DNA of 64,000 nt from Minisyncoccia bacterium. GTDB lineage: Bacteria; Patescibacteriota; Minisyncoccia; Phycocordibacterales; Zambryskibacteraceae. Positions within the stretch are counted from its first letter, which is position 1, and every line of letters starts with the position of its first letter. Shown here piece by piece: positions 16,974-61,723 of the stretch. A program made the translations under genes and the position numbers. Under the pieces are notes generated by a model. It was not told the DNA's origin. It ran no database searches and saw only the letters and a program-made list of their open reading frames with translations. The DNA is taken from NCBI GenBank assembly GCA_049651785.1, contig JBASCT010000022.1, forward strand, positions 44 through 64,043, written 5' to 3'.

Positions 16974-16988
16974 GCTCGCGGGGAAGCA

Positions 16989-17392: not shown

Positions 17393-17395
17393 CCC

Positions 17396-17452: not shown

Positions 17453-17455
17453 TTC

Positions 17456-17884: not shown

Positions 17885-17891
17885 TTAGACA

Positions 17892-18545: not shown

Positions 18546-18546
18546 C

Positions 18547-20427: not shown

Positions 20428-20810
20428 ACGAAGAAGGGGAACAAATACAGGAACAAGAGCTAGAGCACCATAAGAAGTTCGGAGGAGTAACCTTTATCCT
20501 GATGCTCATCGTGGCTCTGTTTTTCGACGGTATTCAGATTCTGGTCCAGCTCATTCCGGTCGCGGGACAGATTCTCGGAAGCGTCATCGGTCTTCTCGCT
20601 TTCATGACCTTTTTCCTCTGGTTTGCCATGAAGGGCATGAGGTTTCTGACCGCAGGAAGAATTATCACCATGACAGGAACCTTGTTCGTGGAAGTTATAC
20701 CTTTAGCCAGCGCCCTGCCCGTCTGGACCCTTTCGATTGTCCTTATGTTTATCACCAGTAAGTTTGGGCGAACTACCAAAGTTGCGAGTATAATAACATC
20801 AAGGAAATGA
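20424..20810 (+). CDS. Small polytopic membrane protein (operon member)
   Basis: 128 aa with 3-4 hydrophobic helices; ATGA overlap with the upstream stop. Confidence 0.5.
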   Translation: MNEEGEQIQEQELEHHKKFGGVTFILMLIVALFFDGIQILVQLIPVAGQILGSVIGLLAFMTFFLWFAMKGMRFLTAGRIITMTGTLFVEVIPLASALPVWTLSIVLMFITSKFGRTTKVASIITSRK

Positions 20811-21514: not shown

Positions 21515-22353
21515 AATATTTAATTGGCGCCACGCTTTCTCTGTTCCTGTTTATCGGTCTAGCGAGTTTTTCATTCGCACAAGATTACCAGCTGCTTCAA
21601 CCCCTGCCCATAGGTACCGGTGGAACGGAAGCAAGGACAATCACGCCGACTCAATATATTTCAGGCATGTTCATGTTAATTATCGGCATTGCGGGAGTTC
21701 TTGCGGTCATTATGATTATCGTCGGCGGTATTAAGTACATGACGACCGATGCCATGGGGGCGAAAAGTGACGCCAAGAAAACAATCCAAAACGCTATTTT
21801 CGGTCTGCTCCTCGCTCTCGGTGCTTGGATAATTCTCTACAGCATCGGCGGCGATCGCTTGACGAACTTTACCATTTCTCTTGACGCAATCCCGGCCGCA
21901 AGCACAACTCCGCCAATCCAACGAGAACCCTGGCCCGATGACTCCGCGCTACGCCGAGCTTTGCTCCAGAATGGAATTACCGTCCAAAGAACAACCTCAT
22001 GTTTATGGGTAGGACAAACGGCGTGTACCTCTCTTTCTGACATAGGTGGCACCGTAATTGCCGGGCTAGGAACGCTTCGGGCAAATTGTCCTACTTGCAT
22101 GATTGTTATCAACGGCGGGACAGAGTATTGGCTTCATGGTAATGGATCAAGAGTGTTGGCAGACAACCCAACGGACCATAGGCCTGGAGGGGGCGCGGTT
22201 GATTTGGACAACACCACGACCCTAAACAGATTTGTACTTGACAACGGACAAGAAATAACCGGTAGAAACAATTGTAGTAACGTTGGCCCTGCTTACAGGA
22301 TTGGAAATGCAATTTATGTTAACGAGTTTAACCACTGGCATGTCTGCTACTAA
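21511..22353 (+). CDS. Pilin-like protein (signal peptide + two hydrophobic helices, VirB2/TrbC-like topology) fused to a Cys/His-containing C-terminal domain
   Basis: MKYLIGATLSLFLFIGLASFSFA, then FMLIIGIAGVLAVIMIIVGGIKYMTTDAMGAKSDAKKTIQNAIFGLLLALGAWIILYSI. C-terminal HGNGSRVLAD...DHRPGGGAVD...EFNH resembles metallopeptidase motifs (weak). Confidence 0.5.
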   Translation: MKYLIGATLSLFLFIGLASFSFAQDYQLLQPLPIGTGGTEARTITPTQYISGMFMLIIGIAGVLAVIMIIVGGIKYMTTDAMGAKSDAKKTIQNAIFGLLLALGAWIILYSIGGDRLTNFTISLDAIPAASTTPPIQREPWPDDSALRRALLQNGITVQRTTSCLWVGQTACTSLSDIGGTVIAGLGTLRANCPTCMIVINGGTEYWLHGNGSRVLADNPTDHRPGGGAVDLDNTTTLNRFVLDNGQEITGRNNCSNVGPAYRIGNAIYVNEFNHWHVCY

Positions 22354-22359
22354 CAAAAA

Positions 22360-23616
22360 ATGAAAAAAATATTATTAATTTCCGGTGGAGTAATTCTCGT
22401 AATCGTCTTGGGAATTTTTTCCTGGATTCTCGTCTCCAAAGATCCAGAGGTGCCGGTGGGTGAGGCCCTGAGGGACTTTTTGCCGTTCGGTTCGGGCGAT
22501 GACTTCGTCGTGCCTCCCGGTGGGGGCGGGTTCAGCGAGGGCGGGGGCGGTGAAGATTCTTCGGCGGGCGAGGGTGGTGCTCCTGAGAAAATTCTTTTCC
22601 GTATTACTGACGTTCCCGTCGCTGGCTTCGTCGCCCTTAATAGGGGCACCTCTTCTACGGCCGTGCGCTATGCCGAGCGCGCCACGGGCCATATCTACGA
22701 AGTGAATCTTGGGAATCTTGAGAGAGCAAGGCTGACGAACCAGACCCTGCCGAAAATTTATGAGGCGCACTTCCGAGCGGACGGGAGCGCCGTCCTCTTC
22801 AGATCACTTAAAGATGATTCTGATGTAGTAGAAAATATTTCTCTCGCTCTTACACCGCCGAAGGCGACGGCCACTTCTTCGGAAGAAGAGTTTTACTCCG
22901 TTTCATCAACGCCTCTGCGCGGCGAACTTGGCTCAACTGCGGCCGGTTCCACAAACACTCTTTTCTATGTTCTTGAGGACGCGGGCTCTGTCGTCTCGTC
23001 CGCCTTTGACGGCTCGGGTCAGAAGACTCTTCTTTCTTCGCAATTCACCGACTGGGCTCTTGCTCCTTACGGCAACACGGGTCTTCTCGTTTATACCAAG
23101 GCTGGCGGCGCCAATACTCCCGGATATGCCTACACTCTTGGCGGCTCAGGAGGTCTTACTAAAGTTATCGGACCGGTTCCGGATTTGACGGCCCTTATGA
23201 GTCACGACGGCAAGAGGTTGGTTCTTTCCCAGAGTTATGCCGGAAGCATCAGATCTTTTATAAGAAATGTGGAAGATGATACCAGCTTCGAAATGTCTTC
23301 TCCCACCTTTGCCGACAAATGTGTCTGGAGCAGAGCAAGGCTTGCGGTCGTTTTCTGCGCCACTCCTTCAAACAATATTGGCTCGGGTGAGCCGAGCAAT
23401 TGGTATTTGGGCCGCACCTCGTTCCAAGACAAGATTTGGGTCTTTGATGCCGAAACAGAACTCTCGGAGCTTCTCGCCGAGCCGGCAAATGTTGTCGGTT
23501 TGGATCTCGACGTTGTCGAGCTGAAACTTTCTCCCAGGGAAGACTACCTGGTGTTTATAAATAAAAAAGATCTGTCACTCTGGGCGCTTAAGCTTGAGCC
23601 GGCCCCCGAGGAGTAG
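22360..23616 (+). CDS. Signal-anchored extracellular protein (last gene of T4SS-like operon)
   Basis: 418 aa; N-terminal TM helix, Gly-rich linker (PPGGGGFSEGGGGEDSSAGEGG), then a large probably beta-rich domain. Confidence 0.5.
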   Translation: MKKILLISGGVILVIVLGIFSWILVSKDPEVPVGEALRDFLPFGSGDDFVVPPGGGGFSEGGGGEDSSAGEGGAPEKILFRITDVPVAGFVALNRGTSSTAVRYAERATGHIYEVNLGNLERARLTNQTLPKIYEAHFRADGSAVLFRSLKDDSDVVENISLALTPPKATATSSEEEFYSVSSTPLRGELGSTAAGSTNTLFYVLEDAGSVVSSAFDGSGQKTLLSSQFTDWALAPYGNTGLLVYTKAGGANTPGYAYTLGGSGGLTKVIGPVPDLTALMSHDGKRLVLSQSYAGSIRSFIRNVEDDTSFEMSSPTFADKCVWSRARLAVVFCATPSNNIGSGEPSNWYLGRTSFQDKIWVFDAETELSELLAEPANVVGLDLDVVELKLSPREDYLVFINKKDLSLWALKLEPAPEE

Positions 23617-24880: not shown

Positions 24881-26227
24881 ATGACTGACTATAAACAGCT
24901 CTGGCAAAGTGTCCTCGTCGAGATAGAGCTGGGTATTTCAAGCGCAAACTTCGCAACCTGGTTTAAAGACACAAAAATTGTCAAAGAAGATGCCGGCATA
25001 ATCATTCTCTCCGTGCCCAACGCCTTTGTGAAAGAGTGGCTTCTGACAAAATACCACAACACCATTCTTAAAAGCCTGAGAAACGTCAACGGCGCCATTC
25101 ATGCTGTTGAGTACGTGGTGAACAAGGAGGAGGTGAGGAGAAAAGAATCAAGGCCCGAGAGCGAAACTCACACCAAGGAGCTTCCTTTACCGGAAGTGCT
25201 GGTAAACAAGGACGATAATCTCAATCCGCGCTACACCTTCGAGACGTTTGTGGTTGGGCCGTTCAACGAGCTTGCCCACGCGGCGGCTCAAGCGGTGATA
25301 AAAAAACCGGGAATCATGTACAACCCACTTTTTATCTATGGTTCAACCGGCCACGGCAAAACACACCTGATCCAGGCGGTGGGAAATTACATAAAACAAA
25401 CCAGTCCGAGCAAAAGAGTCTACTACATGACCTCGGAACAGTTCGGCCAAGAGTGGATGAACGCGCTCCAGAACAATAAAATTGCGATTTTTAAGGATAA
25501 ATACAGGAAATATGACGTTTTTATCGTTGATGATATCCAGTTTTTCTCCGATAAACAAAAGTTGCAGGAGGAAATCTTCCACCTTTTTAACGCCCTCTAC
25601 GACAGCAACAAGCAAATAATCTTTTCTTCCGACAAACACCCCTATTTCATTACCGGTCTCGAGGAGCGCCTGAAGTCGCGGCTCTCGGCCGGGATGACGG
25701 TTGATATTCCGGTCCCGGACAAAGAGTCCCGGGTCGCAATAATATCTGCTAAGGCAAAACAACAGGGAATGAATCTTTCTGGAGAAATAATAGATTACCT
25801 GGCCCACACCATAAACGGCAACATCAGAGACCTTGAGGGCGCGGTGAACACCCTTCTCTGTCACGCCCAGCTTAAAAACAAGGAGATTAGCATGACCGAC
25901 GTTAGAAACTACATTAAAAACAACATAAAACCAAAGAAGGCGGTGGCGGTCAAAGATGTTGTTAAGGTTGTCTCCGATTTCTACAACATAAAAGAAGACA
26001 GTATTTACGAAAAAACCAGACATAAAGAGGTAATAAGACCAAGGCAAATAATCATGTACCTTTTAAGGGAAGATTTTAATATTTCTTACCCGTCCATCGG
26101 CCAGAAGCTCGGCGGCAGAGATCACACCACCGTGATTCATTCGTGTGAAAAAATAAAAAATGACATAAAAGCCGACCAAGGGCTCCTGGAAGAGGTCGTT
26201 AGAATTAGAAACCTTTTGGCTGTGTAA
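24881..26227 (+). CDS. dnaA: Chromosomal replication initiator protein DnaA
   Basis: 448 aa; AAA+ Walker A GSTGHGKTHL and C-terminal DNA-binding signature GGRDHTTVIHSCEKI. Confidence 0.95.
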   Translation: MTDYKQLWQSVLVEIELGISSANFATWFKDTKIVKEDAGIIILSVPNAFVKEWLLTKYHNTILKSLRNVNGAIHAVEYVVNKEEVRRKESRPESETHTKELPLPEVLVNKDDNLNPRYTFETFVVGPFNELAHAAAQAVIKKPGIMYNPLFIYGSTGHGKTHLIQAVGNYIKQTSPSKRVYYMTSEQFGQEWMNALQNNKIAIFKDKYRKYDVFIVDDIQFFSDKQKLQEEIFHLFNALYDSNKQIIFSSDKHPYFITGLEERLKSRLSAGMTVDIPVPDKESRVAIISAKAKQQGMNLSGEIIDYLAHTINGNIRDLEGAVNTLLCHAQLKNKEISMTDVRNYIKNNIKPKKAVAVKDVVKVVSDFYNIKEDSIYEKTRHKEVIRPRQIIMYLLREDFNISYPSIGQKLGGRDHTTVIHSCEKIKNDIKADQGLLEEVVRIRNLLAV

Positions 26228-26431: not shown

Positions 26432-27535
26432 ATGAAAATAGAATGTATTAAAGAACAACTCGAGGAGGCCCTAAACAAAGCTAACAAAGTTTCCGCGAGA
26501 AGCAACGCCCTACCGGTTCTTTCCGGATTATACCTTAGTGCCAGACAAAACGCTCTTGCTATAAAAGCCACCAACTTGGACCTTGGAATCTCAATTAGCA
26601 TCCCCGTCAGAATAACCGAACCGGGAATTGCCGTGGTGCCGGCACAAATAATAACTTCTTTTATCTCCTCGTTATCAAGCGACAAAAGCATAAACATAAG
26701 CACCAAAGGACAAACCCTGGAGATAAAAACAAAAAACACAAAAACGGTTATCAAAACAATCCCGAACGAAGATTTTCCGGTTATTCCGGAAATAGAAGAC
26801 GAAAAAGCTTTTTCAATACAGGCGCGAGACCTTGTTTTTGGCATAAGGTCTGTTGTCTATGCTGCGGCCGTGGGCGGAGCAAGGCCGGAACTCTCGGCGG
26901 TCTCTCTTACTCACGAGGGAGACGCGCTTGTCTTTGCCGCAACGGACTCTTTTAGGCTTGCCGAGAAGAGAATTAGAGTGAAAAAGGCCCCAAGATTTAA
27001 ACAAATTCTTATTCCACAAAAAAATGCCGTCGAGATATCAAGAATTTTTGATAAAGGAGAAGAAGATGTTTCTATTTCTGTCGAAGAACACCAAATAGCC
27101 ATGAGGGCAGGCGGTGTTTATCTCACTTCTCGCATTGTTGACGGATCCTTTCCTGACTACAAACAAATTATTCCCAAGGAGATGAAGTCAAAAGCGATTG
27201 TTTTAAAGCAAGACCTCATAAACGCCCTTAAAACAAGCCTTATTTTCTCGGACAACTTTAACCAGCTCACTTTTAAGCTCATGCCGAAAGCAAAAAGCTT
27301 TGAGCTTGAGTCAAAAAACAACGCCGTCGGCGAAAACACCGACGCCGTTGACGCCGCGCTCGAGGGCGAAGATATTTCTGTAAATATAAACCACAGATAT
27401 TTTACCGACTGTTTTCAGTCCATAATCACCGACAGTGTTTCTCTCGAGTTTGGCGGAGAGGCGCGCCCCATTCTGGTGCGCGGTGTTGGGGACACGAGCT
27501 TCCTCTACCTTGTGATGCCAATGAATCAGTCTTAG
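26432..27535 (+). CDS. dnaN: DNA polymerase III beta sliding clamp
   Basis: 367 aa; three-domain clamp profile with N-terminal MKIECIKEQLEEALNKANKVSA....LPVLSG. Confidence 0.9.
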   Translation: MKIECIKEQLEEALNKANKVSARSNALPVLSGLYLSARQNALAIKATNLDLGISISIPVRITEPGIAVVPAQIITSFISSLSSDKSINISTKGQTLEIKTKNTKTVIKTIPNEDFPVIPEIEDEKAFSIQARDLVFGIRSVVYAAAVGGARPELSAVSLTHEGDALVFAATDSFRLAEKRIRVKKAPRFKQILIPQKNAVEISRIFDKGEEDVSISVEEHQIAMRAGGVYLTSRIVDGSFPDYKQIIPKEMKSKAIVLKQDLINALKTSLIFSDNFNQLTFKLMPKAKSFELESKNNAVGENTDAVDAALEGEDISVNINHRYFTDCFQSIITDSVSLEFGGEARPILVRGVGDTSFLYLVMPMNQS

Positions 27536-40667: not shown

Positions 40668-41498
40668 CTAGTTTTTAAAGGATTTAATTGCTTGAGCAAG
40701 CAGAATTTGTTTTTCCAAGGGTTTCTTCCAAACGCTATTTAAGCGTCTCCCATTCAATCTAACTCCCGGAGAAAAATTAATTTCTTCCTGAAACTTCTGC
40801 ATATTTTCTTTTCTGCTGATTACCACCTCGTTTGGTCTTAACACTCTCGATTCAATATTAAATTCCGAAAGAAGTTTTTGGATCAGAAAAAGTCTCGAGA
40901 CATCTTTTTGGTAGCCCCTTATTTGTCTTAAATTTCTCTTAGGCCTGAAATCCATGCAACCCTCATCATCAAAAAAAGCCCTAACAAACTCTTTTTTCAA
41001 AGCTTTGGGTAGTCGATAAATAACTTTCAGCAATTCTTTTGATTTTATTTGTAAATAAGCTCCTAGGGCCACGTTATGATAACTAATACGAGATACTCCC
41101 GTTGTTGTATTCACCCACCGCCGAGGCGGGTAATTGTAAATCTCTTTCATACAGTTTTCTACCATGTCGAGCAACGACTGATTTCGGTTGTTATAGACAC
41201 AGCTAGTCCTGCTTATTGTCCCATCAAAAATTAGATGAGCCACAAGCAAGACAGTTTTCTTCTCCCATCGGTCAAATTTCTTGAAATCCCTATCACTTTT
41301 TCCCCTTCTAGCTAAGGCAAGATTTTTTGCTCTGACACCACTAGCAGTACGAATTGATTTTATCTTTTCTGCGCCCAAGGGGATGTGGTGAATGTGAGAA
41401 TAAACTGAAGTTTTAGAGCGTCCGGTAATTTTTACTATTTCTGTTAAGGTGTGGCCCGACTTGCGTAAATTGAGGCAGCGCTTCTTAAAATTATTCAT
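40668..41498 (-). CDS. HTH + double-motif LAGLIDADG-like homing endonuclease family protein
   Basis: N-terminal HTH (LRKSGHTLTEIVKITGRSKTSVYSHI) and two LAGLIDADG-like motifs (LVAHLIFDGTIS; VRAFFDDEGCMDF). Start codon 2 nt from the tRNA-Lys 3' end. Confidence 0.65.
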   Translation of the reverse strand: MNNFKKRCLNLRKSGHTLTEIVKITGRSKTSVYSHIHHIPLGAEKIKSIRTASGVRAKNLALARRGKSDRDFKKFDRWEKKTVLLVAHLIFDGTISRTSCVYNNRNQSLLDMVENCMKEIYNYPPRRWVNTTTGVSRISYHNVALGAYLQIKSKELLKVIYRLPKALKKEFVRAFFDDEGCMDFRPKRNLRQIRGYQKDVSRLFLIQKLLSEFNIESRVLRPNEVVISRKENMQKFQEEINFSPGVRLNGRRLNSVWKKPLEKQILLAQAIKSFKN

Positions 41499-41499
41499 G

Positions 41500-41570
41500 T
41501 CCCCCCACCAGGAATCGAACCTGGATCAGCGGATTAAAAGTCCGTTGCTCTACCACTGAGCTATGGAGGG
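41500..41570 (-). tRNA. tRNA-Lys (anticodon UUU)
   Basis: Manual cloverleaf CCCTCCA-TA-GCTC-AGTGGTA-GAGC-A-ACGGA-CTTTTAA-TCCGC-TGAT-CCAGG-TTCGATT-CCTGG-TGGGGGG-A; no encoded CCA. Confidence 0.8.
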
Positions 41571-43479: not shown

Positions 43480-44082
43480 TTAACTCTTCTTAACTCCGAT
43501 GTAGGATTTGATCTTGCGATCACCGCTTACAGCGAAAGCAATGGATCTCATATTGCCGTCGTCAAGCTCCCAGCGCATTTTTTTCAACCCTTTTCTATTG
43601 ACCGGACTCGGACCTCTTTCGATCACTATGGGCAAGGAATATCGGTCTTTTTTTATAATCTTTTTGAGATTAATAATAATTGGAACGACGCGCCTGGCTC
43701 TTTTGTTAAGAAGCCCGCTACCTGACTCAAGAGCTTTTCTAACCATTTTTCCAGTATGCGCCAGTGAATTATCTGTCCAAGAAACAGGGAGTCCGCCAGC
43801 TCTTTTCCAAACCCCCACTTCTTTGGTTAAAAGCTCACCTACATACCAGTCAACTTTTTGATAAGCAACAAGCCTCTTTTTCCAGCTGCCGATAATTTTA
43901 TCCAGTTTTTTCTCCGGCAGTTTTCTTAGCGCCTTGTAGGCTCGGGCTCTTGCCAGCAAATATTTTTTAACTGGGGGAATTTTTTTATCATTTTTTTTAG
44001 CAACACCGTATTTCCGGAGAAATTCTGTTAAAAGAAAAGTTCTCTTAACCTCAATACCGCCAACTCTTCTCATTAACTTCAT
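43480..44082 (-). CDS. Lys-rich hypothetical protein between ruvA and mutM
   Basis: 200 aa, coupled to ruvA (overlapping stop/start); no confident family. Confidence 0.45.
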   Translation of the reverse strand: MKLMRRVGGIEVKRTFLLTEFLRKYGVAKKNDKKIPPVKKYLLARARAYKALRKLPEKKLDKIIGSWKKRLVAYQKVDWYVGELLTKEVGVWKRAGGLPVSWTDNSLAHTGKMVRKALESGSGLLNKRARRVVPIIINLKKIIKKDRYSLPIVIERGPSPVNRKGLKKMRWELDDGNMRSIAFAVSGDRKIKSYIGVKKS

Positions 44083-50302: not shown

Positions 50303-51004
50303 TTACAAACTTATCTCTCGAACGGATTGATTGCGATGAATTAGTTCGTCATTTCTGACGGAGAGGAAAAATTCGTACTGGTTTCTTGGGTTCCTGCCGT
50401 ACCAACGCAGGAATTCGCTCTCAACCGGTTTTTTCTTCAGCTCCTCGCCTCGGGTTTCGAGAAATTTTGAGTATTGTTCAAATGCGTGTTGTTCGAAAAG
50501 ATAATTAAGCTCGAGAGACGCCCTGGGGCTGAAAAGGTACAAAAGGTAAGAGGTCCAGAAATAGAAGAAAGCGAAAAGCATCGGCACAAAAGTGTGTCTA
50601 AGGAAGCCGGCCCTCTTCTCTTTTTTTGCCAATTGCGTTATGACGATTACATGCATGGTCTCGTTGTCTTGCGCTAGGCGGGCGTAGCGCGTGACATTTG
50701 AGAGTCGGAGGGCGCGTTTCTCATCCGAATAAAACATTGTAAGAAGTGTATAGGCGACCGAGGACCAAGAGTGGTAGGGAACACGGGCGATAACTTCCAC
50801 GGCACGAAATTTCAGATAAGACGGCTTGAAGCCGTAGAAAAGATTGCCGCAATTAACGAGAAAACCCCCGAGAATCTGGGGCAGGAATCCGGGGCGGTAG
50901 CTGTCGAAAGGTTTTTTATAAGCTTCGAGTTGTTCCGGGTTATTGAGTTCTAGGTTGAGCGCTTCTAACCCTGGTTTATCTTTTGGTGTATCCATTAGAA
51001 ACAT
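50303..51004 (-). CDS. Alternative oxidase / plastid terminal oxidase family di-iron carboxylate protein
   Basis: All four AOX iron-binding helices are present: EVIARVP (LETVAAVPG-like), NETMHV (NERMHL-like), EQHAFEQY (EEEAIHSY-like), RNDELIHRN (RADEAHHRDVNH-like). The track's longer GTG start at 51106 lies inside tRNA-Leu and is rejected. Confidence 0.75.
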   Translation of the reverse strand: MFLMDTPKDKPGLEALNLELNNPEQLEAYKKPFDSYRPGFLPQILGGFLVNCGNLFYGFKPSYLKFRAVEVIARVPYHSWSSVAYTLLTMFYSDEKRALRLSNVTRYARLAQDNETMHVIVITQLAKKEKRAGFLRHTFVPMLFAFFYFWTSYLLYLFSPRASLELNYLFEQHAFEQYSKFLETRGEELKKKPVESEFLRWYGRNPRNQYEFFLSVRNDELIHRNQSVREISL

Positions 51005-51025
51005 TATAACTGACAAAGTTACTAC

Positions 51026-51112
51026 TGGTGCCGAGGAGGAGATTTGAACTCCTACGAGGGTTCCCTCACTGCGTTCTGAACACAGCGTGTCTACCAATTT
51101 CACCACCTCGGC
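51026..51112 (-). tRNA. tRNA-Leu (anticodon CAG)
   Basis: Manual fold GCCGAGG-TG-GTG-AAATTGGTAGA-CAC-G-CTGTG-TTCAGAA-CGCAG-long variable arm-AGGAG-TTCAAAT-CTCCT-CCTCGGC-A-CCA. Confidence 0.8.
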
Positions 51113-53924: not shown

Positions 53925-54473
53925 ATGTTTTTTACCGGTAAGGGTGATAAGGGTACCACGAAGTTTTTCGGCACGGATGCCAGGCGTGTTTCGAAAAGCT
54001 CGAATGTGGCGGAAGCGCTCGGGAGTTTAGACGAGCTCAATTCTCTTCTCGGGCTTGTAAAGGTGAAATGTCTTGAGAAAAAGACCGAGGTTTATGACAA
54101 CTTGGCTGAGACGGTAGAAAACGTTCAGGAAAATATTTTTATCATCTCGGCCAATATCGCTGGGGCGAACAAAAATATCACGGAGGAGAAAGTGAAGGAA
54201 ATGGAGGAGATTATCCGCCAGTGCGAAAAGACTCTGCCGCCGATAAAAACTTTTACCGTTGCCGGCGGCACGGAGCTCTCGGCACTCTTTGATTTCGCCA
54301 GAACCCTGGCGCGCCGGGCCGAGAGGCGAGTGGTCTCAGTCAATGAAGAGCTTCCTATCGCGCCACCCGAAATTCTGAAGTATATGAATCGACTCTCAAG
54401 TCTTCTTTTTGCCCTCGCTCGACTCTCGAATCACCTTTCTGGTATAAAAGAGCGCGCTCCGCGATATACTTAA
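53925..54473 (+). CDS. ATP:cob(I)alamin adenosyltransferase, PduO type
   Basis: 182 aa; N-terminus TGKGDKGTTKFFGTDARRVSKSSNVAEALGSLDELNSLLG matches the PduO/MMAB family signature. Confidence 0.8.
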   Translation: MFFTGKGDKGTTKFFGTDARRVSKSSNVAEALGSLDELNSLLGLVKVKCLEKKTEVYDNLAETVENVQENIFIISANIAGANKNITEEKVKEMEEIIRQCEKTLPPIKTFTVAGGTELSALFDFARTLARRAERRVVSVNEELPIAPPEILKYMNRLSSLLFALARLSNHLSGIKERAPRYT

Positions 54474-54487: not shown

Positions 54488-54560
54488 GGCGGCTATAGTT
54501 TAGTGGTAGAACTCCAGCTTGTGGAGCTGGTCGCGAGAGTTCGATTCTCTCTAGCCGCCC
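54488..54560 (+). tRNA. tRNA-His (anticodon GUG) with genomically encoded G-1
   Basis: Manual fold G(-1)-GCGGCTA-TA-GTTT-AGTGGTA-GAAC-T-CCAGC-TTGTGGA-GCTGG-TCGCG-AGAGT-TCGATTC-TCTCT-AGCCGCC-C; G-1 pairs with discriminator C. Confidence 0.8.
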
Positions 54561-54570
54561 AAGATACAAA

Positions 54571-54600
54571 AATGTCTGTTCTTACGACAGGCATTTTTGT
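54571..54600 (+). terminator. Terminator hairpin AATGTCTGT-TCTTACG-ACAGGCATT + TTTTGTT after tRNA-His
   Basis: Direct reading. Confidence 0.6.
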
Positions 54601-54617
54601 TATCTTTGTCTTGTTTA

Positions 54618-54635
54618 GGAGAGAGAATCGAACTC
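54618..54635. repeat. Inverted partial copy of the tRNA-His T-arm (GGAGAGAGAATCGAACTC)
   Basis: Reverse complement GAGTTCGATTCTCTCTCC matches tRNA-His 54536-54552 at 16/17 positions. Confidence 0.6.
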
Positions 54636-54687
54636 GGGAAGGGGGTCGGGGAAACTCTAGTTTCCCCGTGGAGGAAGGCAGGGCGAT

Positions 54688-54703
54688 CTGCCTGCGCAGG
54701 CAG
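54688..54703. repeat. Perfect 16-nt GC palindrome CTGCCTGCGCAGGCAG
   Basis: Direct reading. Confidence 0.7.
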
Positions 54704-54752
54704 GAGCCCGTCGGAAAACCGAGGGTTTCCGAGGAGTGAGATAGCGGAGCGT

Positions 54753-54767
54753 CTCTCTAGCCGCCCA
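54753..54767. repeat. Direct repeat of the tRNA-His 3' end (CTCTCTAGCCGCCCA), about 190 bp downstream of the gene
   Basis: Identical 15-mer to 54547-54561. Confidence 0.7.
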
Positions 54768-54837
54768 CGTCAAACGTGGCCTTGCCCGTGCAGACGTGTC
54801 CCGTTCGACGGGACCCGTCAATCTATATATTATTTAA

Positions 54838-54860
54838 GTAGCGACGTCAGACGTCGCTAC
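54838..54860 (+). promoter_or_regulatory. Perfect 11-bp-arm hairpin GTAGCGACGTC-A-GACGTCGCTAC ending 4 nt before the GIY-YIG start codon
   Basis: Direct reading; preceded by two more palindromes (CCACGTCAAACGTGG 54768-54782; GTCCCGTTCGACGGGAC 54798-54814). Confidence 0.55.
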
Positions 54861-54863
54861 GAG

Positions 54864-55130
54864 ATGCAACACTTCTACATTTACGTATTATTAAGTCGTA
54901 GGGATAAAAAACTTTATATTGGCTATACCAATAATCTAAAAAGACGGCTGACAGAACACGCAAACGGGGAAGTGAAATCAACCAAAAACCGCAGACCACT
55001 AAGACTCATTCATTATGAATATTTTATTGATGAAAGAGATGCTAAATCGCGAGAGATATTTTTAAAAAGTGGGGCAGGACACAAGCAACTTAAAGATAAG
55101 TTAAAACAAACTTTCACTAACCTATCCTGA
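54864..55130 (+). CDS. Stand-alone GIY-YIG nuclease domain protein
   Basis: 88 aa; FYIYVLLSRRDKKLYIGYTNNLKRRLTEH...N has the GIY/YIG, Arg and Glu/Asn catalytic positions. The track's longer 54597 start runs through the hairpin array and is rejected. Confidence 0.7.
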   Translation: MQHFYIYVLLSRRDKKLYIGYTNNLKRRLTEHANGEVKSTKNRRPLRLIHYEYFIDERDAKSREIFLKSGAGHKQLKDKLKQTFTNLS

Positions 55131-55930: not shown

Positions 55931-55960
55931 GGGCCCCGCAATCGTTGCGGGGCCCTTTTC
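55931..55960 (+). terminator. Rho-independent terminator GGGCCCCGCAA-TCG-TTGCGGGGCCC + TTTTC
   Basis: Direct reading. Confidence 0.8.
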
Positions 55961-56011: not shown

Positions 56012-56746
56012 GTGATTTTCGATTTGGATGGTACCTTGGCACCATCTAAATCGCCGATGGAGCCGGATATGACCAGGCTCTTGGCAAAACTCCTTGAGAA
56101 AACGGGGGTGGTGGTAATTTCCGGCGGCTCTTGGAGCCAGTTTGAAAAACAGTTTCTTGCGAGCGCCAATTTCTCTTCGGGACAACTGGAGCGGCTGTTT
56201 CTTGCGCCCACAAGCGGTGCCAGTTTTTTTAGATTCGCGAATGGCAAGTGGCACAGAGTTTATGCCGAAGTTTTATCTCGAGAAGAGAAAAAAAGAATCT
56301 TTGAAGCTTTCGACTACGCTCTGCCGAAGGGAGGATACGTGCCGCCGAAAAATCCCCACGGTGAACTTATCGAAGACCGCGTGACACAAGTAAGTTTCTC
56401 CGCCTTGGGACAGCAAGCACCATTGGCGCTCAAAGAAAAATGGGACCCGGATAAAAAGAGACGCCTCAAAATTGTTCCGTTTCTTAAAGAAAAACTCCCA
56501 GACCTTGAGGTACGCATCGGCGGCACCACCACCATAGACATAACCAAAAAGGGTATCGACAAAGCCTACGGCATCCAGAAGATTTCCGAAGAACTCGGGC
56601 TTTCGATAGATAGAATGCTCTTCGTCGGCGACGCCCTCTTTGAAGGGGGCAATGACGAGGCGGCCAAAAAGACCGGTATAGACTGCCGGGCCGTCCGTGA
56701 CACGGCAGATACGAAGCAACTCATACGCGAACTCATTGGTCAATAG
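56012..56746 (+). CDS. HAD-superfamily subfamily IIB hydrolase (phosphomannomutase-like candidate)
   Basis: Motif I IFDLDGTLAPS, motif II VVVISGGS, C-terminal FVGDALFEGGNDEAA (motif IV). Confidence 0.65.
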   Translation: MIFDLDGTLAPSKSPMEPDMTRLLAKLLEKTGVVVISGGSWSQFEKQFLASANFSSGQLERLFLAPTSGASFFRFANGKWHRVYAEVLSREEKKRIFEAFDYALPKGGYVPPKNPHGELIEDRVTQVSFSALGQQAPLALKEKWDPDKKRRLKIVPFLKEKLPDLEVRIGGTTTIDITKKGIDKAYGIQKISEELGLSIDRMLFVGDALFEGGNDEAAKKTGIDCRAVRDTADTKQLIRELIGQ

Positions 56747-56768
56747 GAAGTGCTACAATATTGCCATC

Positions 56769-57119
56769 ATGAAAGAATTAAAACCTTTTACTGACAATCG
56801 CCCTTGGGGCTGGTTTCGGGACTTCATAGACAATAAGTCCTGCACGGTCAAAATCCTTTTTGTAAAGAAAGGCGAAGCTTTCAGCCTTCAGAAGCACCTA
56901 AGACGCGACGAATTCTGGCGAGTCTTGAAAGGGGAGCCGGAAATCACTCTGGGAGATAAAATCATTGAGGCCAAGCCGGGCGATGAGTTTGAAGTTTCAA
57001 GGAAAACCATTCACCGAATTTATTCGCCCAATACCGACTCGGAAATTTTAGAGATCTCAAGAGGTAAATTCGACGAGAACGATATAATTAGAATCGAAGA
57101 CAAGTATGGCCGCGCCTAA
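56769..57119 (+). CDS. Cupin-2 protein resembling the cupin domain of type II mannose-6-phosphate isomerases
   Basis: RPWGWF...FSLQKHLRRDEFWRVLKGEPEITLGD...GDEFEVSRKTIHRIYSP. Start placed at internal MKELK; the track start is at 56697. Confidence 0.6.
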   Translation: MKELKPFTDNRPWGWFRDFIDNKSCTVKILFVKKGEAFSLQKHLRRDEFWRVLKGEPEITLGDKIIEAKPGDEFEVSRKTIHRIYSPNTDSEILEISRGKFDENDIIRIEDKYGRA

Positions 57120-58269
57120 AAAGAAAATTAAGAAAAAAGTTTCCAAGAAAACCCGCCCGAATGACCGGAATCATTCGGTCGGGCGAGAACCCGCGAGAAA
57201 GGTTCTCAAAAGAGCGGTTACACGTCGGGTGAAGAGGTCGGGTCAATTAGCCCCAAGAATCCTCCGTAAGTCGGAAGGGAATCCCATCATCATGCCGATT
57301 ACTACCGATTCTTGGCAGTCGAAGGCCACCTTTAACCCCGCGGCGCTCTACCACGACGGCAAGGTTCATATTATTTATCGTGCGATAGGCGATTCGGACG
57401 AGTCAGTCTTGGGTTACGCCAAAAGTTCCGACGGGCTCTCGGTTGATTCTCGCTTCGGCCACCCCGTTTTTTCCCACACGCGGCCGCGTGAAAGCTCTGA
57501 GGCTTTACCAAAAATTTCTTATACCTCCGGGGGTGGCTGGGGCGGCGGCTCGGAGGACCCGCGCCTGACGCTAATAGACGACCAAGTCTACCTTATTTAC
57601 ACCGCCTTTGACGGTTGGGGTTCTGTAAGAATCGCCCTGTCTTCCATCACCCTCGATGATTTTATTTCAAACCGCTGGAAGTGGAAAAAGCCGGTTCTAA
57701 TCTCGCCCCCGAACGAGATAAACAAAAACTGGGTACTCTTTTCCGACAAGATTAACAACAGATTTGCCATTCTTCACAGTCTTTCGCCGGAAATTCTTGT
57801 TGATTACTTTAGCGATCTTGACGAACTTGACGGCAGCCGCTTCATAAAAAGCATCCACCAAGGCAGCCCTTCTTGGTACAAGCGCGACAAGGGGATTCGC
57901 GGCGTCGGTCCTACGCCCATCAAGACAAAGTACGGCTGGCTCGTTCTCTACCACGCCATGGAGGAAGGCAACCCCAACCACTACAAGCTCTGGGCCATGA
58001 TTCTTGATCTCAATAATCCCAAAAAGATTCTTTACCGCGGTGTTGAACCCGTTCTTGAGCCGGATCAATCGTACGAGAACGACGGCTTTAAGTCTGGCGT
58101 GGTCTACTCCTGCGGTGCCGTGGTCAAAGACGGGGAACTCTTTGTCTACTATGGCGGCGCTGACACGGTTTCCTGCGTTGCCACGGCCAATTTTGAAAAG
58201 TTTCTTGAAGAAGTGGTCTCGTCCAAGCCCGCGAGACTCACCAAGAGAAAAATAAAATCAAGAACATAA
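57106..58269 (+). CDS. Glycoside hydrolase family 130 (beta-mannoside phosphorylase-like) protein with Lys-rich N-terminal tail
   Basis: NPIIMPITTDSWQSKATFNPAALYHDGKVHIIYRAIGD...DPRLTLIDDQVYLIYTAFDGW...YYGGADTVSCVATAN is the GH130/DUF377 pattern. Confidence 0.8.
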   Translation: MAAPKKKIKKKVSKKTRPNDRNHSVGREPARKVLKRAVTRRVKRSGQLAPRILRKSEGNPIIMPITTDSWQSKATFNPAALYHDGKVHIIYRAIGDSDESVLGYAKSSDGLSVDSRFGHPVFSHTRPRESSEALPKISYTSGGGWGGGSEDPRLTLIDDQVYLIYTAFDGWGSVRIALSSITLDDFISNRWKWKKPVLISPPNEINKNWVLFSDKINNRFAILHSLSPEILVDYFSDLDELDGSRFIKSIHQGSPSWYKRDKGIRGVGPTPIKTKYGWLVLYHAMEEGNPNHYKLWAMILDLNNPKKILYRGVEPVLEPDQSYENDGFKSGVVYSCGAVVKDGELFVYYGGADTVSCVATANFEKFLEEVVSSKPARLTKRKIKSRT

Positions 58270-60186
58270 ATGTTCATCACCAAGCGCTCACACCACAATC
58301 CGATCCTGACACCGACCCAAGAACACTACTGGGAAGCGTTCGCCACCTTTAACATGTCTCCCATAAAGCACGGGAAGGCGACCTACGGCCTTTACCGCGC
58401 CATATCGTCGCGCGACTCGCTGAGGGTACCCGACAGAATCTCGACGATCGGGATTGCGAAAAGTACCGACGGCACCCATTTCAGCGATCGCAAAATTTTT
58501 ATTGAACCCTCGGAGGAATGGGATAAATTCGGATGCGAAGATCCCCGAGTGACCTACTTTGAAGGGAAGTTCTATATTTTCTACACGGCCATTTCCACTT
58601 TTCCCCCTTCTCCGGATGGCATCAGGGTAGCGGTTGCCATATCAAAGGATCTCAAACATGTGGATGAAAAGCATCTTATAACCCCATTTAATGCTAAGGC
58701 GATGGCTCTTTTCCCCGAGCGCATTAACGGAAAAATCACCGCAATTTTAAGCGCCCATACCGACAGTCCGCCGACCAAAATGTCTTTTGCCCAAGTCGAT
58801 AACATCGAGCAATTGTGGGACGAGAAATTTTGGAATTCTTGGCACTCGGAAATTAACAGCCATTCCATAGATCCGCGTCGGGGCGACAAGGATCAGGTGG
58901 AAGTCGGGGCGGTACCCCTTAAGACCAAATACGGCTGGTTACTTGTCTATTCGCATATCGAAGACTATTTTTCTGACAATAAGCGATTCGGGATTGAGGT
59001 CCTGCTTCTCGAGCTCGGCAATCCGCAGAAAATCGTCGGGCACACGAAGGGTCCGATTGTTGTGCCAGAAGAGCCGTACGAAACCTCCGGCCATATCGGC
59101 AACATCGTGTTTCCGTCGGGCGCGCTTGTTGATAAAGATCTCCTTACAATTTACTACGGCGCCTCGGATACCACCGTTTGTAAAATTCGCGTCAATCTCG
59201 AGGATTTAATTTCGAGTGTTTTTGTCGAGACGGAGGCTAGGTGGCACTTCAAGCGTCTGAAAAATAATCCGATTATCGTACCCAACCCGAATCATAAGTG
59301 GGAATCAAAGGCCACCTTTAACCCGGCCGCCATAGACCTTGGCGGCAAGGTCCACATTCTCTACCGCGCCCTCTCGGATGACAACACTTCTTCCATGGGC
59401 TATGCCATAAGCGAAGATGCCGCCTTTATTAGCGAGAAGTCGAATGAGCCGATCTATGTGCCGCGCGAAAATTTTGAGATTAAAAAAGTTGAAGGAGCAA
59501 ACTCCGGTTGCGAAGACCCGCGTCTTACGAAAATGGGTAAGGACATCTTCATGTGCTACACCGCCTTTGACGGTGTCGGCCCGCCGAGAGTCGCCGTCAC
59601 TTCAATCAAAGAAGCTGATTTTTTGGCGCGTAATTGGAAGTGGACCAAACCCAGACTGATTACTCCGGAAAATGTTGACGATAAGGATGCCTGCATTTTG
59701 CCGGAGAAGATTAAGGGTTCCTACCTCATTCTCCACAGAATCGGCACGGACATCTGTGCCGACTTTCTCAAGACGCTTGATTTCAAAACGGAGACTGTTA
59801 AGAAGTGCATCAGAATTTTCGGACCGCGACCGGGCGCTTGGGACGGCACCAAGGTGGGCATCGCCGCGCCGCCGGTAAAGACCAAAAAGGGCTGGCTCCT
59901 TATTTACCACGCGGTCTCCGAACATCACCACACCTACCGCATCGGAGCCGTGCTTCTGGATCTTAAAGACCCGACGGTGGTTCTCGCGCGCTCGACTGAT
60001 CCAATTTTTAGTCCGGAAGAAGAATTCGAAAAAATCGGTATCGTAAACGGTGTTGTTTTCCCCTGCGGCATGGTTGTGCGTGACGGTCTTCTCTATATTT
60101 ACTACGGTGGCGCCGACAGAGTAACGGGTGTGGCCACCATGGAAATCGACGTTCTTGTCAATGCTCTGACAAGAAATTTGTACTAA
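58270..60186 (+). CDS. Tandem double GH130-domain protein
   Basis: Two repeats of NPI(L/I)xP...(K/E)ATFN...YRA(I/L)S...CEDPR(V/L)T...YYG(A/G)(S/A)D across 638 aa. Confidence 0.8.
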   Translation: MFITKRSHHNPILTPTQEHYWEAFATFNMSPIKHGKATYGLYRAISSRDSLRVPDRISTIGIAKSTDGTHFSDRKIFIEPSEEWDKFGCEDPRVTYFEGKFYIFYTAISTFPPSPDGIRVAVAISKDLKHVDEKHLITPFNAKAMALFPERINGKITAILSAHTDSPPTKMSFAQVDNIEQLWDEKFWNSWHSEINSHSIDPRRGDKDQVEVGAVPLKTKYGWLLVYSHIEDYFSDNKRFGIEVLLLELGNPQKIVGHTKGPIVVPEEPYETSGHIGNIVFPSGALVDKDLLTIYYGASDTTVCKIRVNLEDLISSVFVETEARWHFKRLKNNPIIVPNPNHKWESKATFNPAAIDLGGKVHILYRALSDDNTSSMGYAISEDAAFISEKSNEPIYVPRENFEIKKVEGANSGCEDPRLTKMGKDIFMCYTAFDGVGPPRVAVTSIKEADFLARNWKWTKPRLITPENVDDKDACILPEKIKGSYLILHRIGTDICADFLKTLDFKTETVKKCIRIFGPRPGAWDGTKVGIAAPPVKTKKGWLLIYHAVSEHHHTYRIGAVLLDLKDPTVVLARSTDPIFSPEEEFEKIGIVNGVVFPCGMVVRDGLLYIYYGGADRVTGVATMEIDVLVNALTRNLY

Positions 60187-60219: not shown

Positions 60220-60882
60220 ATGATATTTCCGAACTGGGCTAAAAATATTTTGTTTCTTTTGGTTCTGATGATTTCAGGACTTCTTCTTATTATCATCATT
60301 GAGGGTTTGATTTCCGGCAACGAGCTTATTCCCCTCAATACCGCAATCGAGAGTGCCATAACTCGCATGAGAACTCCGCTTTGGACCAACTTTTTTGTCG
60401 CTGTTACCAAAATCGGCAACCCGTTTGTTCTAACTTTTGCCTCAGCCCTCATGGCCTTCTTCCTCATTCTCCGCGGACGGCTCTACGACGCCGCCCTTTT
60501 CGTTACGGCCCTTGTCATAGCGATAGTCTCCCTCGTAGTTCTCAAAGAAACTTTCCAGATTGCCCGCCCGGCTTCCGACCTTCTTGCGACCGAGGGTTGG
60601 AGCTTCCCTTCGGGGCACGTCGCGGTCGCCACCGCCTTCTTTTTCATGTTTGCATACTCGTTTTACGGCAAGATGAAGACAATCAGACACAAAACTATCC
60701 TAATTCTTTCCTCATTTACAGCGACGCTCCTCATCTCGCTCTCGCGACTTTATTTGGGCGCCCACTGGACGCTTGATGTCTTGGCGGGCATTGCCTTAGG
60801 GCTCTTGTCTGTAAGCTTCACCATCCTCGTCTTCAGTTTGTTTCTTGACGGCAGGCGCTCGTTTAGAGATAGGCTCGGCTAG
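60220..60882 (+). CDS. PAP2-family phosphatase (undecaprenyl-diphosphatase-like)
   Basis: KETFQIARP ... SFPSGH ... SRLYLGAHWTLDV (KxxxxxxRP / PSGH / SRxxxxxHxxxD). Confidence 0.8.
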   Translation: MIFPNWAKNILFLLVLMISGLLLIIIIEGLISGNELIPLNTAIESAITRMRTPLWTNFFVAVTKIGNPFVLTFASALMAFFLILRGRLYDAALFVTALVIAIVSLVVLKETFQIARPASDLLATEGWSFPSGHVAVATAFFFMFAYSFYGKMKTIRHKTILILSSFTATLLISLSRLYLGAHWTLDVLAGIALGLLSVSFTILVFSLFLDGRRSFRDRLG

Positions 60883-60934
60883 AAAGAGTCCAGGAGGTTG
60901 CGCGTCTCCTACTCTGTAATATAATTCAGTAATT

Positions 60935-61723
60935 ATGATGAACACAGAATCAACACAAAACGTTTTTAAGTGGGGGAAAATTGTACTTATAGTTTTAGCA
61001 GTATTTCTTGCCGCCGAGGCTCTGGGCTCTCTCAAGGGGCTTAAGGCCATTGATCCGGCCTATAACTCGATTTCCGTCTCGGGCGAAGGGGAAATAGTCG
61101 CACCGCCGGATGTTGCTGTCTTTTCTTTCTCGGTTTCAGCCGATGCCAAATCGGTTAGTGACGCTCAAGGCGAGGTAACCGAGAAAATGAACTCGATTCT
61201 TGATGGGCTTGAAACCATGGGTGTTGAAGAAAAAGATATCAAGACTACCGATTATTCCATCTGGCCGAAGTATAAGTACGAACCCCTTATTTGTACCACG
61301 ATGTATTGCCCCCCCTCGCGACAAGTTGAAGACGGTTATACCGTGACCCACAGTGTTTCCGTCAAAGTAAGAAAAACGGAACAAGCTGGCGAAGCGCTGG
61401 CTCTGGTCGGGGAGAAAGGGGCCACCAATCTATCTGGCATTTCTTTCGTGGTTGATGATCCAGATAAAATTCTTGAAGAAGCAAGAGCCATGGCTATTGC
61501 CGATGCCAAGGAAAAGGCGAAAGCTCTTTCCAAGGATCTTGGTGTTCGCCTGGTAAGGGTGGTCAGCTTCTATGACAACACTGGTGGCGGTATTCCATCT
61601 TACGGCGAGGCGATGGGTATGGGTGGCGACATGGTAAGGAATATCAAAGCTCCTGCTCCAACAATTCCTATGGGTGAGAACAAGATTACGGTTAACGTCA
61701 CAGTGGTCTACGAAATCAGATAA
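60935..61723 (+). CDS. SIMPL-domain (DUF541) exported protein
   Basis: 262 aa; signal anchor then the SIMPL fold signature (SVSGEGEIVAPPDVAVFSFSV...ITVNVTVVYEI). Confidence 0.75.
   Translation: MMNTESTQNVFKWGKIVLIVLAVFLAAEALGSLKGLKAIDPAYNSISVSGEGEIVAPPDVAVFSFSVSADAKSVSDAQGEVTEKMNSILDGLETMGVEEKDIKTTDYSIWPKYKYEPLICTTMYCPPSRQVEDGYTVTHSVSVKVRKTEQAGEALALVGEKGATNLSGISFVVDDPDKILEEARAMAIADAKEKAKALSKDLGVRLVRVVSFYDNTGGGIPSYGEAMGMGGDMVRNIKAPAPTIPMGENKITVNVTVVYEIR

Follow-up and report, generated by a model that had tools for sequence, protein, structure and literature searches.

What do three GH130 domains, a mutase and an isomerase do side by side in the chromosome of a Minisyncoccia bacterium, and in which direction does sugar pass through them? 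The question is raised by a stretch of 64,000 nucleotides, here called the window (contig JBASCT010000022.1 of GenBank assembly GCA_049651785.1, positions 44 to 64,043 of the forward strand). At 56012-60186 of the window, four consecutive genes on the + strand encode a haloacid dehalogenase (HAD)-IIB enzyme, a stand-alone cupin, a single-domain GH130 protein (A) and a tandem GH130 protein (B, with domains B1 and B2). All four open reading frames (ORFs) lie where a preliminary description of this DNA had placed them, which read the cluster as an ATP-sparing route from host or partner mannosides to fructose 6-phosphate (Fru-6-P). We propose instead, with a probability of roughly 0.45 for the statement taken as a whole, that the four genes form one transcription unit of a Paceibacteria chromosome, within the Candidate Phyla Radiation (CPR), and that their products make up a reversible module linking Fru-6-P, mannose 1-phosphate (Man-1-P) and β-1,2-mannosides, which would turn over a mannoside pool that the cell makes itself, much like mannogen.

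A chance resemblance can be set aside: searches against solved structures give E-values of 3e-35 for the HAD protein and, for the two GH130 proteins, of 1e-47 to 3e-56, and the layout recurs in dozens of related genomes. Protein A (57106-58269, +, 387 residues; catalytic core 57271-58269) scores 126 bits with PF04041 and protein B (58270-60186, +, 638 residues) scores 302 bits in two stretches (cutoff 26), in keeping with the one single-domain and one tandem GH130 protein that had been described. The two stretches of B correspond to B1, approximately residues 1-322 (58270-59235), and B2, approximately residues 323-638 (59236-60186). The best matches of all three domains are Teth514_1788 (9fj8) and Teth514_1789 (7fip), then Lin0857 and Uhgb_MS (E 2e-37 to 3e-56), with the β-1,4 enzymes UhgbMP, RaMP1/2 and BfMGP ranking far below the β-1,2 enzymes in each case. 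The NCBIfam models fall in the same order as the PDB ranking for each domain: NF052550 gives 214 bits for A, 170 for B1 and 246 for B2, all below its equivalog cutoff of 450, and NF050092 gives 132-171 bits for the three, below its cutoff of 550. An AlphaFold model of B (predicted local distance difference test score, pLDDT, 90; predicted template modelling score 0.88) supports a five-bladed β-propeller in Foldseek comparison, each half reaching a template modelling (TM) score of 0.86-0.89 to 9fj8 and 7fip; no solved structure among the Foldseek matches spans both halves. The core of A is modelled with pLDDT mostly of 80-97.

To read the active sites we used published residue criteria, namely the proton-donor Asp, the phosphate-binding Arg/His pair and the Glu/Lys or Tyr/Arg pair of the +1 subsite (PMC7660257, PMC4599007, PMC12814180), and counted residues in 83 B and 74 A orthologues from 84 related loci, aligned with four reference enzymes. 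The catalytic Asp is kept in all three GH130 domains, as Asp151 in A (74/74 orthologues), Asp91 in B1 (81/83) and Asp416 in B2 (83/83); in A, a Gly-rich insertion, GGGWGGG, lies ahead of it. At the +1 subsite, where Glu/Lys marks β-1,2 enzymes and Tyr/Arg marks β-1,4 enzymes (PMC7660257), each window domain has Glu/Lys, as do 74/74 orthologues of A, 82-83 of the 83 of B1 and 83/83 of B2. Taken together, this pair, the Asp donor and the Asn/Asp of the -1 subsite are kept in 74/74 A, at least 81/83 B1 and 82-83/83 B2 orthologues. In Teth514_1788 numbering, the sugar-subsite positions held in all three classes are Asn29, Arg44, Glu92, Asp93, Lys143 and Asp282, represented in A by Asn77, Arg92, Glu150-Asp151, Lys207 and Asp353, and in B1 by Asn28, Arg43, Glu90-Asp91, Lys143 and Asp300. 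All three domains thus appear to bind a β-1,2-mannoside. The Glu/Lys pair and the ranking of Teth514_1788/1789, Lin0857 and Uhgb_MS at the top point to β-1,2-mannosides, not β-1,4-mannans or N-glycan cores, as the substrate class. A specificity for β-1,4-mannans or N-glycan cores was considered and rejected, as none of the domains has Tyr/Arg and the β-1,4 enzymes rank far lower; the N-glycan cores suggested as a possible substrate are accordingly dropped.

The domains part company at the phosphate site. The phosphate-binding pair R168/H231 of UhgbMP corresponds to R202 of Uhgb_MS (its Arg) and to R161/H214 of Teth514_1788. At the position of Arg161, B2 has Arg in 83/83 orthologues, A has Ser, Ala, Gly or Asn in 73/74 (Ser225 in the window) and B1 has Ser, Thr or Ala. 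At Arg195, B2 has Lys or Arg (83/83), A keeps an Arg shifted by one position and B1 has His or Gln. His214 and Tyr222 are His and Tyr in 83/83 B2 sequences and are kept in A, while B1 has Ser (80/83) and Phe (82/83) in their place. The signature of B2 is therefore complete (Glu415-Asp416, Lys472, His489-Arg490, Lys528, His547, Tyr556 and Asp616), with the phosphate-binding pair Arg490 and His547, together with Lys528 and Tyr556, present in 83/83 orthologues; its second phosphate ligand is Lys528, and Teth514_1789 likewise has Lys. By this signature B2 would be a canonical β-1,2-mannoside phosphorylase, of the kind grouped in GH130_4 and GH130_6 (EC 2.4.1.339 and 2.4.1.340).

In A, the first Arg alone is lost (Ser225), and Arg265, His283 and Tyr293 remain. 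In B1, all four phosphate ligands are replaced, by Thr164 in the HMMER alignment or a Ser in the MAFFT alignment, and by Gln209, Ser228 and Phe240, with no Lys or Arg within 3 residues of the first position. B1 has also gained Glu at two positions that are Gly in phosphorylases, Glu211 (83/83) and Glu243 (82/83), and has an invariant His-Thr-Asp at residues 163-165. By alignment, Glu211, Glu243 and Asp165 line the former phosphate pocket, from which the Arg and His ligands are absent. What had been taken for a three-fold amplification of GH130 is in fact a set of three different active sites, with the phosphate-binding Arg/His pair kept in B2 only. The preliminary description had made its reading depend on both the catalytic Asp and the phosphate-binding residues; the former are in place throughout, and the latter are complete in B2, lack the Arg in A and lack Arg, Arg, His and Tyr in B1, so that the refuting condition which that description had set applies to two of the three domains.

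The Arg lost from A and B1 is the residue of the so-called H/R switch, which is Arg in the GT108 phosphorylases of Leishmania and His in the strict GDP-mannose transferases MTP1/2 (PMC12814180, PMC10913872). Its replacement by Ala in Uhgb_MS cuts phosphorolysis 16-fold (PMC12814180), and later work found that the switch is not sufficient by itself (PMC12814180, PMC10913872). Carboxylates in the phosphate pocket set GH130 β-1,2-mannosidases apart from phosphorylases (PMC4599007).

The first gene of the cluster (56012-56746, +, GTG start) encodes a HAD-IIB phosphohexomutase-type protein of 244 residues, which scores 80 bits with TIGR01484 (cutoff 41.8) and 41.6 bits with PF03332, the eukaryotic phosphomannomutase (PMM) family (cutoff 22.4). 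It carries the DLDGT nucleophile motif at residues 4-8, an ISGGS motif, motif IV as GDALFEGGND at 206-215 and a type IIB cap. All 17 of its PDB matches are phosphogluco- or phosphomannomutases. The best is the α-phosphoglucomutase (α-PGM, pgmH) of Lactococcus lactis (4bnd, E 3.4e-35, residues 2-242), and eukaryotic-type PMMs come next (E 1e-14 to 1e-6); in the alignment to 4bnd the cap reads SALGQ, as it does there, against the SPIGR of PMMs. With pgmH, eukaryotic PMM1/2 and Leishmania PMM, the window protein shares a full-length match, the DxDGT motif, the type IIB cap and the GGND of motif IV. Its sequence supports a place in the PMM/α-PGM branch and in the mutase class. A Cof-type sugar phosphatase was rejected for the window gene, as the Cof model gives 43 bits against a cutoff of 137 and the PDB matches are all mutases; the earlier expectation that the protein would group with mutases is borne out to this extent. 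Its designation as a phosphomannomutase holds for the class. For the sugar, we infer a mannose (or dual) preference from genomic context alone: a classical mutase of the PGM/PMM superfamily (families 87 and 162) occupies the same slot elsewhere, and a HAD-PMM gene follows a membrane-anchored fusion of A and B2 in a distant locus, both of which favour it.

The second gene encodes a cupin of 116 residues (56769-57119, +). The longest ORF is 56697-57119, and the true start is most likely the ATG at 56769, since the same call is found on an identical public contig and in 48 orthologues. The protein scores 61.9 bits with PF01050 (cutoff 23.6) and covers positions 361-467 of the 467 in TIGR01479, which is the isomerase domain of the type II enzymes ManC, AlgA and XanB that join a guanylyltransferase to a phosphomannose isomerase (PMI). 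Gln41, His43, Glu48 and His82 occupy the metal-ligand positions, and 47-48 of 48 orthologues have them unchanged; this Gln-His-Glu-His set is also that of the zinc site of type I PMI. The motifs RPWG, SLQxH..R.E.W and EDDIxR.eD.YGR are kept, with EFW in place of EHW and a variable middle His in HHH. The match to a type II isomerase domain that had been described is thus upheld. Unlike ManC, AlgA and XanB, the cupin protein has no guanylyltransferase domain and is predicted to be an isomerase only. It looks like the split-off PMI domain of a ManC-type enzyme, since several loci have nearby a ManC that lacks exactly this domain.

The four genes are packed like an operon. The start of A overlaps the end of the cupin gene by 14 nt and B begins one base past the stop of A. 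Upstream, a hairpin resembling an intrinsic terminator (55931-55955, +; an 11-bp stem with 9 G-C pairs, followed by TTTTCT) marks the end of the preceding unit and the 5' boundary of the cluster. Downstream of B lies a gene for a PAP2-family membrane phosphatase (60220-60882, +), which is outside the conserved core: it follows B in the closest relatives only. No terminator was found in the gap between B and this gene, which is possibly co-transcribed with the cluster. Sequence inspection found no signal peptide in any of the four cluster proteins. In the same closest relatives, the PAP2 gene after B is accompanied by one for a SIMPL/DUF541 protein (60220-61723 in the window; 9914-11383 in locus L002, where the PAP2 start overlaps the B stop by 4 nt), and in other lineages the SIMPL gene lies upstream of the cluster.

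Conservation gives a sense of how much the module matters. Tandem protein B has thousands of relatives, and a scan of one genome per species found them in at least 591 species genomes; each of the 80 loci fetched belongs to the Patescibacteria. The best relative of the window protein is on CAYUOR010000005.1 (92% identity), and other close relatives are in metagenome-assembled genomes of Zambryskibacteria and Nomurabacteria. Among deeply diverged relatives B shows about the same degree of conservation as L11, L19 and NusG, which suggests a central function. Of the 66 loci whose upstream flank reaches 3 kb or more, 61 have a single-domain GH130 gene directly upstream of B, and within 8 kb there is a cupin in 47 and a HAD of the PMM type in 30. 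There also exist a 971-residue fusion of A, B1 and B2 and a membrane-anchored fusion of A and B2 (P0253). From the position of A and from these fusions, we take it that the three domain types work together.

When all neighbouring ORFs were clustered across the 84 loci, the recurrent partners were the cupin (48 loci), a protein of the cytidylyltransferase fold closest to RfaE domain II, a heptose-1-phosphate adenylyltransferase (43), HAD-PMM (34), a Cof-like HAD in the same slot (12) and a DUF1361 membrane protein (10). Classical phosphohexomutases (PGM/PMM) fill the mutase slot in 3 loci, and ManC-type guanylyltransferases lacking the cupin domain are adjacent or near in 3, to which the fusion locus L088, fetched apart from the 84, adds one more; neither type of gene was found in the window. 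Importers, binding proteins and secreted glycanases are not among the conserved neighbours. Genes of the major facilitator superfamily (MFS) lie near 8 of the 84 loci and ATP-binding cassette (ABC) genes near 8, the latter being fused proteins of the exporter type.

Several relatives depart from this layout. At L088 (5947-9916), the gene for the A+B1+B2 fusion overlaps the end of the ManC-type guanylyltransferase gene by 23 nt, in an operon for polysaccharide synthesis that also holds a 652-residue GT2 synthase, an epimerase and a nucleotide-sugar dehydrogenase. In six genomes (L004, at 5987-7879, L012, L075, L080, L082 and L086), B is preceded by a gene for a second tandem GH130 of 594-665 residues, whose first half has lost most active-site residues; this makes four GH130 domains in a row. 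In three more (L006, 6978-7991; L047, 276-1310; L061), A and B are separated by an unannotated protein of about 340 residues with a GLEDPD motif, for which neither Pfam nor NCBIfam gives a match; it is possibly a fourth, degenerate domain of the GH130 type. A "type 1" A, with 55-65% identity to the copies in Nomurabacteria, is found in the window and in L007, and the next-closest genomes by NusG and L11 identity (L002, L008-L011) carry a "type 2" A with 41-44% identity and Asn at the switch, a pattern suggesting that one paralogue replaced the other.

The first copy of GH130 has a feature of its own. Residues 1-55 of A (57106-57270) contain 22 Lys and Arg, or 40%, and 2 acidic residues; the tail is predicted to be disordered, and residues 1-50 are modelled with pLDDT below 50. 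A tail of 33-128 residues is present in 70/74 orthologues, with approximately 30-50% Lys and Arg, very few acidic residues and a sequence that is not conserved. We considered and rejected the idea that it reflects a general property of the proteome, as no other 40-residue stretch in the 68 ORFs of the window is as basic. The tail is thus unusual, as had been remarked, within this DNA, but it is no oddity of this genome. In orthologue L084 and in fusion P0253, a hydrophobic helix of the transmembrane type takes its place, which suggests that the tail may anchor A to the membrane's anionic inner face. It could equally bind nucleic acid or polyphosphate.

We propose a model where the cupin isomerase would interconvert Fru-6-P and mannose 6-phosphate (Man-6-P), the HAD-type phosphohexomutase would interconvert Man-6-P and Man-1-P, and B2 would act as a normal inverting phosphorylase, converting β-1,2-(Man)n and phosphate to α-Man-1-P and (Man)n-1, and back. 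A would bind the same sugars without the phosphate-holding Arg, and its polybasic tail, in some relatives swapped for a membrane helix, suggests that the membrane, or else a polyanion, is its probable site of action; its donor or nucleophile may be a different one, for instance a nucleotide-mannose, as for the mannosyltransferases of Leishmania. B1, with its sugar subsites kept and its phosphate pocket filled by two Glu, would probably be phosphate-independent, either as a hydrolase-like trimming activity or as a sugar-binding partner subunit of B2. What is said here of A and B1 draws on residue patterns only. The chemistry would be cytoplasmic, and the pool would be a β-1,2-mannoside or mannan serving as a mannogen-like reserve or buffer. 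Because all steps are reversible, gene content does not itself give the direction of flux; the recurrent combination of an isomerase, a mutase and a nucleotidyltransferase, which would lead from Fru-6-P to activated mannose, points towards synthesis. It is tempting to go one step further and speculate that Paceibacteria keep an intracellular β-1,2-mannan buffer in which A is a tethered, synthase-like enzyme, B1 a phosphate-independent trimming or priming unit and B2 the phosphorylase, all wired to Fru-6-P through the split PMI cupin and the HAD mutase, although we regard this fuller version as possible and no better than doubtful.

Several observations weigh against the model of a self-made pool. 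We know of no report of β-1,2-mannan from CPR bacteria. The nearest characterised relative of the HAD protein is an α-phosphoglucomutase, 4bnd, which is reportedly strict for glucose 1-phosphate, whereas the genomic context of the window protein argues for mannose, and in 12 of the 84 loci the mutase slot is filled by a HAD resembling Cof-type phosphatases. The RfaE-II-like nucleotidyltransferase family that recurs in relatives was not found in the 64-kb window. B1 keeps an invariant Arg203 and Arg204 near its pocket, which might bind an anion in a different way. Co-location in CPR genomes may in part be inherited synteny. Finally, the Arg-to-Ala change in Uhgb_MS abolishes transferase activity as well (PMC12814180), so that a transferase role for A is no simple prediction.

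The leading alternative is the one first suggested for this locus, corrected for linkage: the cluster would be catabolic, and imported β-1,2-mannooligosaccharides from partners or the environment (fungal, protist or bacterial glycans) would be taken through Man-1-P to Fru-6-P at no cost in ATP, the GH130 domains perhaps preferring different chain lengths, like Teth514_1788 and Teth514_1789. The phosphorylase site of B2 is complete, a mutase and an isomerase share its unit, a hydrolase-like B1 would suit degradation, and the MFS or ABC genes near a minority of loci could be read in the same light. The combination of phosphorylase, mutase and isomerase is moreover an established GH130 theme, with its pathway logic worked out in Bacteroides, Ruminococcus and Thermoanaerobacter (PMC4264767). 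The route is therefore chemically possible, but two of the three GH130 domains lack the very phosphate site that would make it ATP-sparing, and nothing in the neighbourhood points to the uptake of outside glycans: there is no conserved transporter, binding protein or secreted glycanase, unlike in the Thermoanaerobacter and Bacteroides loci (PMC4264767), the ABC genes are of the exporter type, and nucleotidyltransferases recur beside the cluster instead. A substrate as rare as β-1,2-mannan would also sit poorly with a gene set found almost universally, and conserved like ribosomal proteins, in the Paceibacteria of groundwater and soil. These points and the three specialised active sites make scavenging less likely, and we consider it a doubtful, though possible, account of the cluster.

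Another possibility is that the module supplies an envelope glycan, with Man-1-P or nucleotide-mannose drawn from Fru-6-P, a membrane-held A adding β-1,2-mannose to a lipid-linked or surface glycoconjugate and the phosphorylase domain recycling or editing the product. The transmembrane helix in place of the tail in L084 and P0253 fits this view, as do the PAP2 gene, whose product would be a lipid-phosphate phosphatase, directly downstream in the window and overlapping the B stop in L002, the triple fusion in a polysaccharide operon with GT2, nucleotide-sugar dehydrogenase, epimerase and ManC, and the finding that all tested β-1,2 GH130 phosphorylases have some GDP-mannose transferase activity (PMC12814180). 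That activity is weak, however, and its reporters doubt its physiological relevance (PMC12814180); PAP2 (7 loci) and polysaccharide genes (1 locus) are lineage-specific neighbours, no flippase or polyprenyl-phosphate glycosyltransferase is conserved near the 84 loci, and the polybasic tail could just as well bind nucleic acid or polyphosphate. We view an envelope role as unlikely. It is more improbable again that the genes share no pathway, the HAD protein being a housekeeping α-phosphoglucomutase and the cupin a general isomerase of nucleotide-sugar metabolism, each beside GH130 by inherited gene order. Such an association would accommodate the α-PGM as best characterised homologue of the HAD protein, the absence of HAD or cupin genes within 8 kb at a good number of loci (30/66 and 47/66 have them) and the long syntenic blocks common to CPR relatives, with NusG, L11 and SecE nearby. 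It is harder to reconcile with neighbouring starts and stops that overlap or abut, with a HAD-PMM gene following the A+B2 fusion in a distant locus, with cupin-less ManC genes adjacent in several loci and with non-homologous phosphohexomutases filling the slot elsewhere; the replacements in the mutase slot and the split ManC indicate that a function, and not a particular gene, is kept beside GH130.

The self-made pool that we favour has partial counterparts among known systems. The closest in sequence and fold are Teth514_1788, a 1,2-β-oligomannan phosphorylase, and Teth514_1789, a β-1,2-mannobiose phosphorylase, of Thermoanaerobacter sp. X-514 (GH130_6), which are 36-42% identical to the three domains. 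They share with the CPR cluster the catalytic Asp, the Glu/Lys pair, the absence of a signal peptide and the arrangement as adjacent paralogues, and the Thermoanaerobacter cluster is linked to Man-1-P and GDP-mannose metabolism as well (PMC4264767). In contrast, the Thermoanaerobacter locus has an ABC importer, GH5 and GT4, none of which the CPR cluster has; both Teth enzymes have complete phosphate sites, against one domain in three here; and the tandem fusion, the polybasic tail and the linkage to a cupin PMI and a HAD mutase belong to the CPR cluster only.

The closest in its proposed working is the mannogen system of Leishmania, where the GT108 proteins MTP1-7, comprising GDP-mannose-dependent β-1,2-mannosyltransferases and dual transferase/phosphorylases, jointly make and phosphorolyse a cytosolic β-1,2-mannan reserve (PMC10913872, PMC12814180). 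The two systems have the same five-bladed propeller and the same proposed mechanism, and in both the paralogues diverge at one and the same phosphate switch position. The match to GT108 is at the level of fold only (Foldseek E of approximately 1e-10 to 6q4x, 6q4y and 6q50; 14-16% identity, below every GH130 structure). The window proteins belong to a different CAZy family, GH130, the residue replacing Arg at the switch is His in MTP1/2 and Ser, Ala, Gly or Asn in A, and no Glu-filled pocket like that of B1 has been described in Leishmania. We thus offer the parallel as an analogy of working and not as family membership.

For B1, the nearest comparison is with the GH130_3 β-1,2-mannosidases BT3780, BACOVA_03624 and Dfer_3176, which likewise have the Asp donor and the Glu/Lys pair, lack the phosphate Arg/His and have an acidic former pocket (PMC4599007, PMC7660257). 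Membership of B1 in this Bacteroides clade was rejected, as it scores 74 bits with NF058598, the BT3780 model (cutoff 550), against 170 bits with the phosphorylase models. The catalytic base of BT3780 is the pair Glu227/Glu268, for which Glu211, Glu243 and Asp165 are candidate equivalents in B1. B1 further differs in having no signal peptide, or any N-terminal hydrophobic segment on sequence inspection, and in being fused to a phosphorylase domain.

The chemistry of phosphorylase, mutase and isomerase is already textbook for gut anaerobes and is not new here. What is new is the combination of a three-way split of the active site, a tandem fusion, a polybasic tail and a split PMI cupin. The literature we searched contains no description of this four-gene module, and it connects GH130 mannoside phosphorylases with CPR bacteria only once and in passing, where a Microgenomates genome is credited with "two GH130 enzymes"; the gene set is annotated only as "hypothetical" or "DUF377". 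Yet, judged by its spread over at least 591 species genomes, it is one of few sugar-active modules that are nearly universal in Paceibacteria. It also presents, in one operon, an active site that nature has divided three ways, into a full site, a site lacking the switch Arg and a pocket filled with Glu, which bears on what switches GH130 and GT108 enzymes among the roles of phosphorylase, transferase and hydrolase. If a self-made β-1,2-mannan exists, it would provide organisms of minimal metabolism and poorly understood energy economy with a storage or buffering polymer and would be a measurable biomarker. Were it to function as a buffer, the system would be a bacterial one convergent with the mannogen "metabolic rheostat" of Leishmania and the first defined reserve-carbohydrate cycle of ultra-small CPR symbionts.

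The remainder of the window encodes functions in replication, repair, translation, pilus formation, a type IV secretion system (T4SS) and the cell wall, among them dnaA and dnaN, NusA, NusG, L11, L19, PolA, RuvAB, PBP1, a type IV pilus, T4SS-like components and eight tRNAs; no glycolytic genes that would lead on from Fru-6-P were found in these 64 kb. Just upstream of dnaA (24881-26227) and dnaN (26432-27535), a same-strand run at 12383-23616 codes among others for a TrbL/VirB6-like protein (14398-16485), a P-loop ATPase of the TraG/VirB4 type (18547-20427) and a pilin of a T4SS (21511-22353). A comparable T4SS is described for Patescibacteria in a preprint (bioRxiv 10.1101/2025.01.22.634366). 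Between fpg and ruvA, a 200-residue protein (43480-44082, -) has no family match, and in three other loci (L024, 3117-3710; L035, 4856-5452; L039, 7392-7997) a homologue with 44-46% identity separates the single GH130 gene from the tandem one. An ORF of 267 residues at 50303-51106 (-) weakly matches the di-iron family of alternative oxidases (PF01786, E 5.7e-9), a surprising find for a CPR genome of fermentative type. Between tRNA-Leu and tRNA-His sits a gene for a PduO-type ATP:cob(I)alamin adenosyltransferase (53925-54473; TIGR00636, 151 bits), and no other cobalamin genes were found in the window. Two further ORFs are of the homing-endonuclease type and border tRNA genes: a LAGLIDADG-like ORF (40668-41570, -) that ends exactly at the start of tRNA-Lys, and a GIY-YIG-like ORF (54489-55130, +) that follows tRNA-His.

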